Source of the DNA: Minisyncoccia bacterium
GTDB lineage: Bacteria; Patescibacteriota; Minisyncoccia; Phycocordibacterales; CAIZLB01
DNA: 34,631 nucleotides
Reading direction: 5' to 3'
Assembly (NCBI GenBank): GCA_041752275.1
Contig: JBGSHK010000019.1
Coordinates: 1-34,631, forward strand
Shown: piece after piece, positions 3,229-3,300 of the stretch
Numbering within the stretch: position 1 is the stretch's first letter
How the letters are laid out: the number at the start of each line of letters is the position of its first letter
Notes under the pieces: generated by a model
The model's input: only the letters and a program-made list of their open reading frames with translations
The model's database searches: none
What the model was told of the DNA's origin: nothing
Position numbers and translations under genes: made by a program

Positions 3229-3300
3229 AGCGGGATGTCAGTAACAGTAACTGGCCAGGCTCATAACCTGGAGATCTTGGTGCAAATCCGAGTCCCGCAA
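3229..3300 (+). tRNA. Initiator tRNA-fMet (CAT), non-canonical body
   Basis: Acceptor GCGGGA/TCCCGC with A1-A72 mismatch; A11:U24 pair; anticodon arm CCAGG-CTCATAA-CCTGG; T arm CTTGG-TGCAAAT-CCGAG. CCA is not encoded. Confidence 0.85.

Follow-up and report, generated by a model that had tools for sequence, protein, structure and literature searches.

An initiator tRNA gene with a coupled A18/G55 elbow swap and an added connector base in a Minisyncoccia genome

The window analysed here is the whole of contig 19 (JBGSHK010000019.1, 34,631 nucleotides) of a Minisyncoccia bacterium, GenBank assembly GCA_041752275.1, a genome of 734 kb in 36 contigs that is 95% complete. Near one end of the window, the forward strand carries a promoter-like site followed by three tRNA genes in the order fMet-Met-Asp, whose coordinates are collected in Table 1. 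The first of these genes, 3229-3300, is the subject of what follows.

Table 1. Features of the tRNA cluster, in window coordinates
Feature	Position	Strand	Evidence and detail
Promoter-like site, TTGATT, 17 nt, TATTAT	3181-3209	+	Consensus scan; ends 20 nt before the tRNA 5' end
Initiator tRNA(CAU), tRNA positions 1-73	3229-3300	+	Rfam tRNA model, 43.2 bits; initiator marks read from the sequence
Connector U8-G9-U between acceptor and D stems	3236-3238	+	cmscan, one inserted base; three bases where two are usual
D arm, stem CAGU/ACUG, 7-nt loop	3239-3253	+	Sequence, cmscan; C10-G25, A11:U24
D loop AACAGUA	3243-3249	+	A18 is 3246, G19 is 3247
Anticodon arm CCAGG/CCUGG	3255-3271	+	A29-U41, G30-C40, G31-C39
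Anticodon loop CUCAUAA, 7 nt	3260-3266	+	Sequence, cmscan; anticodon CAU at 3262-3264
Variable loop AGAU, 4 nt	3272-3275	+	U48 able to pair with A15 (Levitt pair)
T arm CUUGG/CCGAG, loop UGCAAAU	3276-3292	+	U54, G55 (3282), C56, A57, A58
Elongator tRNA-Met	3320-3395	+	ARAGORN; Rfam, 69.7 bits; G1-C72, canonical elbow; 19 nt downstream of the initiator
tRNA-Asp(GUC), third gene of the fMet-Met-Asp cluster	3445-3519	+	ARAGORN, Rfam

The minimum free energy structure computed by ViennaRNA is a cloverleaf (-24.9 kcal/mol, z = -2.3). The match to the tRNA model RF00005 stands well above the gathering score of 29, with an E-value of 4e-6 for the window and 2e-8 for the genome; ARAGORN calls no tRNA at 3229-3300, whether in the window or in the genome. 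In the acceptor stem, A1 (3229) faces A72 (3299) with no Watson-Crick pair, the helix runs from G2-C71 through A7-U66 with C3-G70 present, and the discriminator A73 is position 3300. CCA is not encoded, and the trailer begins with CAAG. G26 stands between the D stem and the anticodon stem, both in the sequence and in the cmscan alignment. The canonical core bases are there: G19-C56, U54-A58, G53-C61, U8 with A14, and the R15-Y48 pair. The canonical G18/U55 elbow is not, its places being taken by A and G. In each of the other 35 matches to the tRNA model in this genome, the D loop has GG and the T loop GTTC, which is the G18/U55 state.

A sequence-only reading of the window had listed these traits, and every item of its list is found in the sequence. 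The same reading presented them as several departures from the canonical cloverleaf. All are indeed present, but some are the common state of the lineage. We collected a set of 75 unique initiators from relatives for position-by-position counts: at 1/72, A/A is the commonest combination (35), followed by C/A (22); A29-U41 occurs in 61 of the 75, relatives with a canonical elbow included; the variable loop has 4 nucleotides in 47 and the D loop 7 nucleotides in 68. By these counts, the A1xA72 mismatch, A29-U41, the 4-nt variable loop and the 7-nt D loop characterise the group and do not single out this gene. The classical tertiary covariations also hold in the set: positions 15/48 are G/C in 48 sequences and A/U in 18, as expected of a Levitt pair, and the 13-22 pair tracks position 46, as in the 13-22-46 triple of classical tRNAs. 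The fold around the changed corner is therefore the usual one.

Two features belong to a much smaller group. Among the 75 unique initiators, connectors of three or four bases are confined to the focal subclade, at 10 loci with 3 distinct sequences; one close relative (L009) has four bases. We also scanned the Parcubacteria order with a sequence pattern (401 genomes, of which 294 matched; 150 of 302 matches listed, 148 of them initiator-like), and the extra connector base occurs in no other initiator among the matches listed. The 10-25 pair is G-C in 71 of the 75 unique initiators, C-G in the focal sequence alone, and U.G in two close relatives. Other species of the focal genus have two connector bases and G10-C25. 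Together, the connector base and C10-G25 form the more recent change, at first tolerated and later fixed within the subclade. It has a cost for annotation: of 75 G55 initiators whose connector has 2 nt, ARAGORN finds 74, but it finds none of the 10 in which the connector has 3 or 4 nucleotides, and it is thus because of the extra connector base that 3229-3300 is missed. Rfam scores fall from 62.6-68.5 bits for canonical initiators to 50.1-54.8 for those with the swap and 40.4-43.2 for those with both swap and connector. In practice, genomes of the subclade annotated with ARAGORN are reported to be without an initiator tRNA.

The extra base could be a simple bulge, or it could reflect a core that has been re-partitioned in one of two ways: into a 5-bp D stem with a U-G26 pair, or into an 8/4 split of the acceptor and T stems, in which U8.G65 forms a pair and the variable loop grows to 5 nt by taking in C49. 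The first of these had been offered by the sequence-only reading, as a D stem of 5 bp that leaves no residue 26. The ViennaRNA centroid does contain it, the third connector base pairing with G26, and the minimum free energy structure is likewise a cloverleaf; A11:U24 is kept in this alternative register too. The second is permitted by the sequence, with a T stem of 4 bp, and the growth of the connector to four bases in L009 would also agree with a rearranged core. However, U8 and A14, universal tertiary partners, are both in the normal register, and the 8/4 split gives up U8-A14; the existence of only three sequence variants leaves covariation no purchase on the question. We regard a re-partitioned core as possible, at roughly one chance in a few.

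Among the matches listed in the order scan, the 148 initiators divide into 86 with A18/G55 and 62 with G18/U55, with no mixed form. The 30 loci nearest to ours give the same picture: 25 have A18-G19 with U-G-C, 5 have G18-G19 with U-U-C, and none is mixed. Both states are found within each of the genera g11, g14, g68, g110, g152 and g162 in the order scan, and within g90 in another pattern scan that catches only tRNAs with 5-nt variable loops. For g11, g14, g152 and g162 we fetched pairs of loci, and the fMet-Met-Asp cluster surrounds the initiator in both elbow states. A third position goes along with the other two: A57 accompanies G55 in 78 of the 86 swapped initiators, against 18 of the 62 U55 forms, again among the matches listed.

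The swap also turns up far from this order. A Muribaculaceae genome has A18/G55 in its only initiator, which differs from a near-twin in a Bacteroidales sample at positions 18, 55 and 59 only; in that sample, the swap is present in 1 of 61 genomes, all other initiators found being canonical. A Prevotella genome carries it as well. In a scan of the whole of GTDB for G55 initiators, about a third of the matches listed are chance matches in large genomes. Of the records titled "Saccharibacteria", three of the four that include a 16S 3' end show the tail type of the Parcubacteria order, and one, agreeing in contig coordinates and sequence, appears to duplicate a genome of the order, so our conclusions do not extend to Saccharibacteria. 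In an initiator context, the half-changed form A18/U55 was seen in no more than six stretches among 241 million metagenome records, and in two of the six the stems are broken. The reverse combination, G55 beside G18G19, occurs in three initiator-like genes outside the phylum (L039, L070, L085), so that the coupling is very strong without being absolute.

Nor is the swap tied to the function of initiation, since it is found in elongator tRNA-Met genes beside canonical initiators. These genes (L028, L065, L114, G695, G575, G621, G550) have a D loop AGKUAGUUA and a T loop UGCAA, and wherever the initiator of the same genome was seen (L028, G575, G621, G550) it keeps G18/U55. Other tRNAs depart from the canonical elbow in ways of their own. 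Several CPR elongator tRNA-Met genes (L024, L062, L071, L086, L107, G592) have a T loop UCCGAUU with a normal G18G19: their C55 is a second departure from the "universal" U55. In family f181 (G738, G595, G723, G617), CAU tRNAs combine a G55 T loop with a D arm outside the GAGN/NCUC pattern (GGUAGGUCUAGU...).

The suggestion of the earlier reading that A18 and G55, as partners in the elbow contact, look compensatory is thus borne out, and the comparison of initiators across relatives that it proposed as a check gives both states within genera, at the same locus. Judged from these alignments, A18/G55 is a real coupled swap, and the two elbow designs are interchangeable states between which initiators of the order have switched many times. 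Replacement of whole genes by transfer is unlikely to be the sole route of switching, because the switches within genera sit in the same fMet-Met-Asp operon. There are, however, two genomes that stand against dismissing it: G251 has both initiator forms on separate contigs (C8:853-911 and C13:801-859), the G55 copy lying in an fMet-Met-Asp operon, and G395 likewise (C1:23725-23786 and C9:17790-17847). These double forms could be intermediates of duplication or transfer, or contamination of the bins.

A structural rationale for the swap can be proposed by comparison with other RNAs. [quoted passage not shown] The segment U54 G55 C56 A57 A58 of our gene, set against this published consensus, fits a U-G-N-R-A pentaloop with its closing U-A pair of the reverse-Hoogsteen type. 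By analogy, we infer that A18 intercalates between A57 and A58, positions 4 and 5 of the loop, and bonds to G55 as in riboswitch T-loops; the elbow of tRNA would then be able to use the same joint as they do. The outer face of the elbow, formed by G19-C56, is the one recognised by ribosomal protein L5, the L1 stalk, RNase P and RNase Z (PMC4810234). This pair being retained, the surface read by the ribosome, RNase P and RNase Z would therefore be unchanged.

With G in place of U55, pseudouridine 55 is impossible: TruB is encoded in the genome, and the initiator offers it no U55 to isomerise. The window also contains, at 5330-6136 on the reverse strand, a gene for a 2'-O-methyltransferase of the SpoU family whose substrate-binding domain is MRM3-like. 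Should its product be a TrmH-type Gm18 enzyme, an initiator with A18 would be no substrate for it. One could go further and conjecture that a re-partitioned core together with an elbow free of pseudouridine makes this initiator structurally distinguishable from every elongator by the cell's own enzymes and ribosome. It would then be a bacterial counterpart of the initiator-specific T loop of eukaryotes, an attractive idea to which we give little credence.

The earlier reading also conjectured that the gene had co-evolved with leaderless, Shine-Dalgarno-less initiation and with an unusual IF2. The second half of this conjecture is not supported: the IF2 of the genome scores above the curated cut-off for IF-2, and the match spans almost the whole model. 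The first half would make the elbow an adaptation to initiation on reduced ribosomes that have neither anti-SD nor uL1, and several observations are consistent with it. The 3' tail of the genome's 16S rRNA is GGATTTATTCA, with no CCUCC (G000:C12:3676-3721, outside the window); SD-like 4-mers are found ahead of 3.3% of first ATGs, compared with 8.9% within ORFs; and a TGnTATAAT-like -10 signal peaks about -14 to -7 of starts. Taken together, these suggest that the mRNAs of this genome are largely leaderless. A search for uL1 (PF00687) found none in the 95%-complete genome, which fits a published uL1-less group of Parcubacteria; the loss of the anti-SD has been published for a subgroup that overlaps it (PMC9297842). 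The uL1 stalk is one of the contacts of the ribosome with the tRNA elbow. The swap is, moreover, commoner in the Parcubacteria order than elsewhere: it accounts for 58% of the initiators of this anti-SD-less order, among the matches listed, and is less frequent elsewhere in the phylum sample, as it is in the Bacteroidales.

What decides against the first half is the distribution of the two states. Since the 16S 3' end is assembled in only 1 of the 10 genomes of the within-genus contrasts, we used tail scans over the order and over the phylum. In the order, the anti-SD is missing from 100 of the 102 16S tails, which belong to genomes with either state of the elbow; the state flips within genera that have the same anti-SD-less tail. 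In the phylum sample, from which the unpublished genome G660 is used for no conclusion, the other orders keep the tail GGATCACCTCC, and eight genomes of family f148 combine this canonical tail with A18/G55 initiators. The swap is also known, as described above, from Bacteroidales initiators and from elongator tRNA-Met genes beside canonical initiators, and in this genome the remaining 35 tRNAs have all stayed G18/U55. The state of the elbow is thus not set by the mode of initiation, and we consider their co-evolution very doubtful.

We now turn to the identity of the gene. The genome has 36 matches to the tRNA model, and the anticodon CAU is found in two of them only, 3229-3300 and the elongator tRNA-Met. 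No canonical initiator was found in five genomes of the same genus (about 6 to 30 contigs), each of which has the same two CAU tRNAs. The marks of an initiator, two of which (the A-A mismatch at 1-72 and A11:U24) had been pointed out by the earlier reading, are read in the sequence: CAU, A1xA72, G2-C71, C3-G70, A73 and A11:U24. GCGG at positions 2-5 is common to all relatives retrieved. In the anticodon stem, two of the three consecutive G-C pairs are in place, and we read the A-U at 29-41 as a lineage variant. The genome has a clear def gene (140.9 bits), adjoining an fmt-like ORF that scores 188.7 bits against an NCBIfam cut-off of 201.5 and covers model positions 3-250 of 315. 3229-3300 therefore looks like the only initiator tRNA of this genome, and the checks that had been suggested for it, tRNA finders and a search for a second initiator, give a match to the Rfam model with no ARAGORN call, and no second candidate here or in the five congeners.

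A CAU anticodon alone separates none of the three types of CAU tRNA, and with just two of the three anticodon-stem G-C pairs the gene might be taken for an elongator tRNA-Met or for a tRNA-Ile2 precursor of the lysidine type; we reject both on identity marks, as extremely improbable, for A1xA72, A11:U24, G2-C71, C3-G70, G30-C40 and G31-C39 are all present, a distinct elongator tRNA-Met lies 19 nt downstream, and the genome has a tRNA-Ile(UAU). The gene for the latter is at G000:C14:3946-4018 (reverse strand), and no tilS in the genome reaches the cut-off, the best PP-loop match having 28 bits against 93.6 (G000:C9:15328-15858); isoleucine therefore calls for no tRNA with a CAU anticodon. Given this tRNA-Ile(UAU) and no TilS above the cut-off, AUA codons are probably read without lysidine.

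The 72 nucleotides of the gene are 100% identical in seven species, this one and six others, even though the 400 nt upstream have only 21-79% identity to the window. An error of assembly is thereby excluded: the same 72 nt recur in the genomes of those six other species, and in one further GenBank MAG record. Both promoter hexamers are kept at most of the nine subclade loci compared (L006 is the exception), while the spacer and surroundings diverge, and we infer that transcription starts from a sigma-70-like promoter at this site. Across the genus, the distance from the initiator to the elongator tRNA-Met behind it is 8-25 nt, and other genera of the Parcubacteria order show the fMet-Met-Asp arrangement with either elbow. 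An alternative would be that the gene is a decaying copy, with the working initiator in unassembled DNA: by Rfam score it ranks near the bottom of the tRNA matches in the genome, ARAGORN misses it, and the assembly is 95% complete in 36 contigs. We reject this on conservation, as scarcely credible: the copy would have stayed identical in seven species with diverged flanks, with its promoter conserved, its tertiary covariations intact and its operon position kept across the order, and no canonical initiator is seen in the five genomes of the genus.

The explanation that accounts best for the whole is that 3229-3300 is the single, functional initiator of this genome, with its elbow built on an alternative design, and we hold this to be very probable. 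The life of such a tRNA can be sketched. It would be transcribed as the first gene of the fMet-Met-Asp operon, from the conserved sigma-70-like promoter; the transcript would be trimmed and CCA then added, post-transcriptionally because it is not encoded. MetRS would charge the tRNA through its CAU anticodon and A73, the Fmt-like enzyme would formylate it by way of A1xA72, G2-C71, C3-G70 and A11:U24, and it would be selected for the P site through G30-C40 and G31-C39. In its predicted elbow, A18/G55 takes the place of the inner G18/pseudouridine-55, with no change to U54-A58 or to the outer G19-C56 pair, while the extra connector base would be accommodated as a bulge, as a U-G26 pair in a 5-bp D stem, or through an 8/4 split of the acceptor and T stems. 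The sequence, its conservation, the covariation and the gene content are observed; the biochemical steps and the three-dimensional geometry are what we would expect from them.

Some further observations concern the tRNA genes of this genome. C directly follows the discriminator in all 34 complete tRNA genes, the base after that C is mostly A, and the full CCA is encoded in about 8 of them. The initiator's own trailer, at 3301-3304, is of the type CAA(G), as in 35 of the 75 collected initiators, a hint of a particular route of 3'-end maturation. ARAGORN reports a long-arm "tRNA-Stop(UUA)" next to tRNA-Val (G000:C15:100291-100373, reverse strand; 40.3 bits with the Rfam tRNA model, A5/A68 mismatch), and a tRNA-Ser with the unusual anticodon ACU (G000:C3:24632-24718, reverse strand) exists beside tRNA-Ser(GCU) in the genome.

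Reviews call G18 and pseudouridine-55 universally conserved (PMC7912444, PMC4810234), and a search of the full-text literature found no published description of a natural A18/G55 variant. Here, an essential single-copy tRNA does without either, as do most initiators, among the matches listed, of a large order whose members are uncultured. What is new at the locus is the connector insertion and the inverted 10-25 pair in a sole initiator; also new are the counts over the order and phylum, the within-genus switches at the same locus and the negative anti-SD test. With repeated swaps and almost no intermediates, the elbow is a compensatory pair that nature provides in a tertiary contact instead of a helix, and a clean test case for an RNA crossing a fitness valley.

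It remains to compare the gene with known systems. The tRNA-fMet of E. coli has G18/pseudouridine-55, C1xA72, G29-C41, G10-C25, a 5-nt variable loop and an encoded CCA. Our gene shares with it the CAU anticodon, an unpaired 1-72, G2-C71, C3-G70, A11:U24 and A73, as well as G30-C40, G31-C39, the loop CUCAUAA and a U-N-C-A-A-A-U T loop with A57. Unlike it, 3229-3300 has A18/G55, A29-U41, A1xA72, a 4-nt variable loop, three connector bases and C10-G25, and does not encode CCA. Initiators that miss one of the three anticodon-stem G-C pairs have been reported for some mycoplasmas and alpha-proteobacteria. In these natural initiators, as in ours, 29-41 is not G-C while 30-40 and 31-39 are; the difference is that in the Parcubacteria order A29-U41 is the majority state, as the 61 of 75 unique initiators show.

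Departures from a connector of two bases are a second point of comparison. tRNA-Sec has long acceptor and D stems, and tRNA-Pyl has one base between the acceptor and D stems (PMC1851642). Both resemble our gene in that their connector count differs from two. However, both serve special purposes and have a shorter connector or longer stems, whereas the tRNA to have gained a base here, and two bases in one relative, is an ordinary essential initiator.

The eukaryotic initiator has an initiator-specific T loop with A54 and A60 (PMC7912444), and so, like ours, a T loop that leaves the elongator consensus at a "universal" position. The likeness ends there: the position is 55 here, not 54 or 60, the domain of life is another, and the eukaryotic change is fixed, whereas in our order two states alternate among close relatives. 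A parallel to the swapped elbow is in the T-loop modules of the FMN and cobalamin riboswitches, whose favoured form UGHAA is matched by the UGCAA at the start of our T loop; here, too, an adenosine would stand at the intercalating position, supplied by the D loop. In contrast to the riboswitch modules, the motif is set inside a tRNA, where G19-C56 is kept at position 3 of the loop and the geometry is deduced from the bases themselves.
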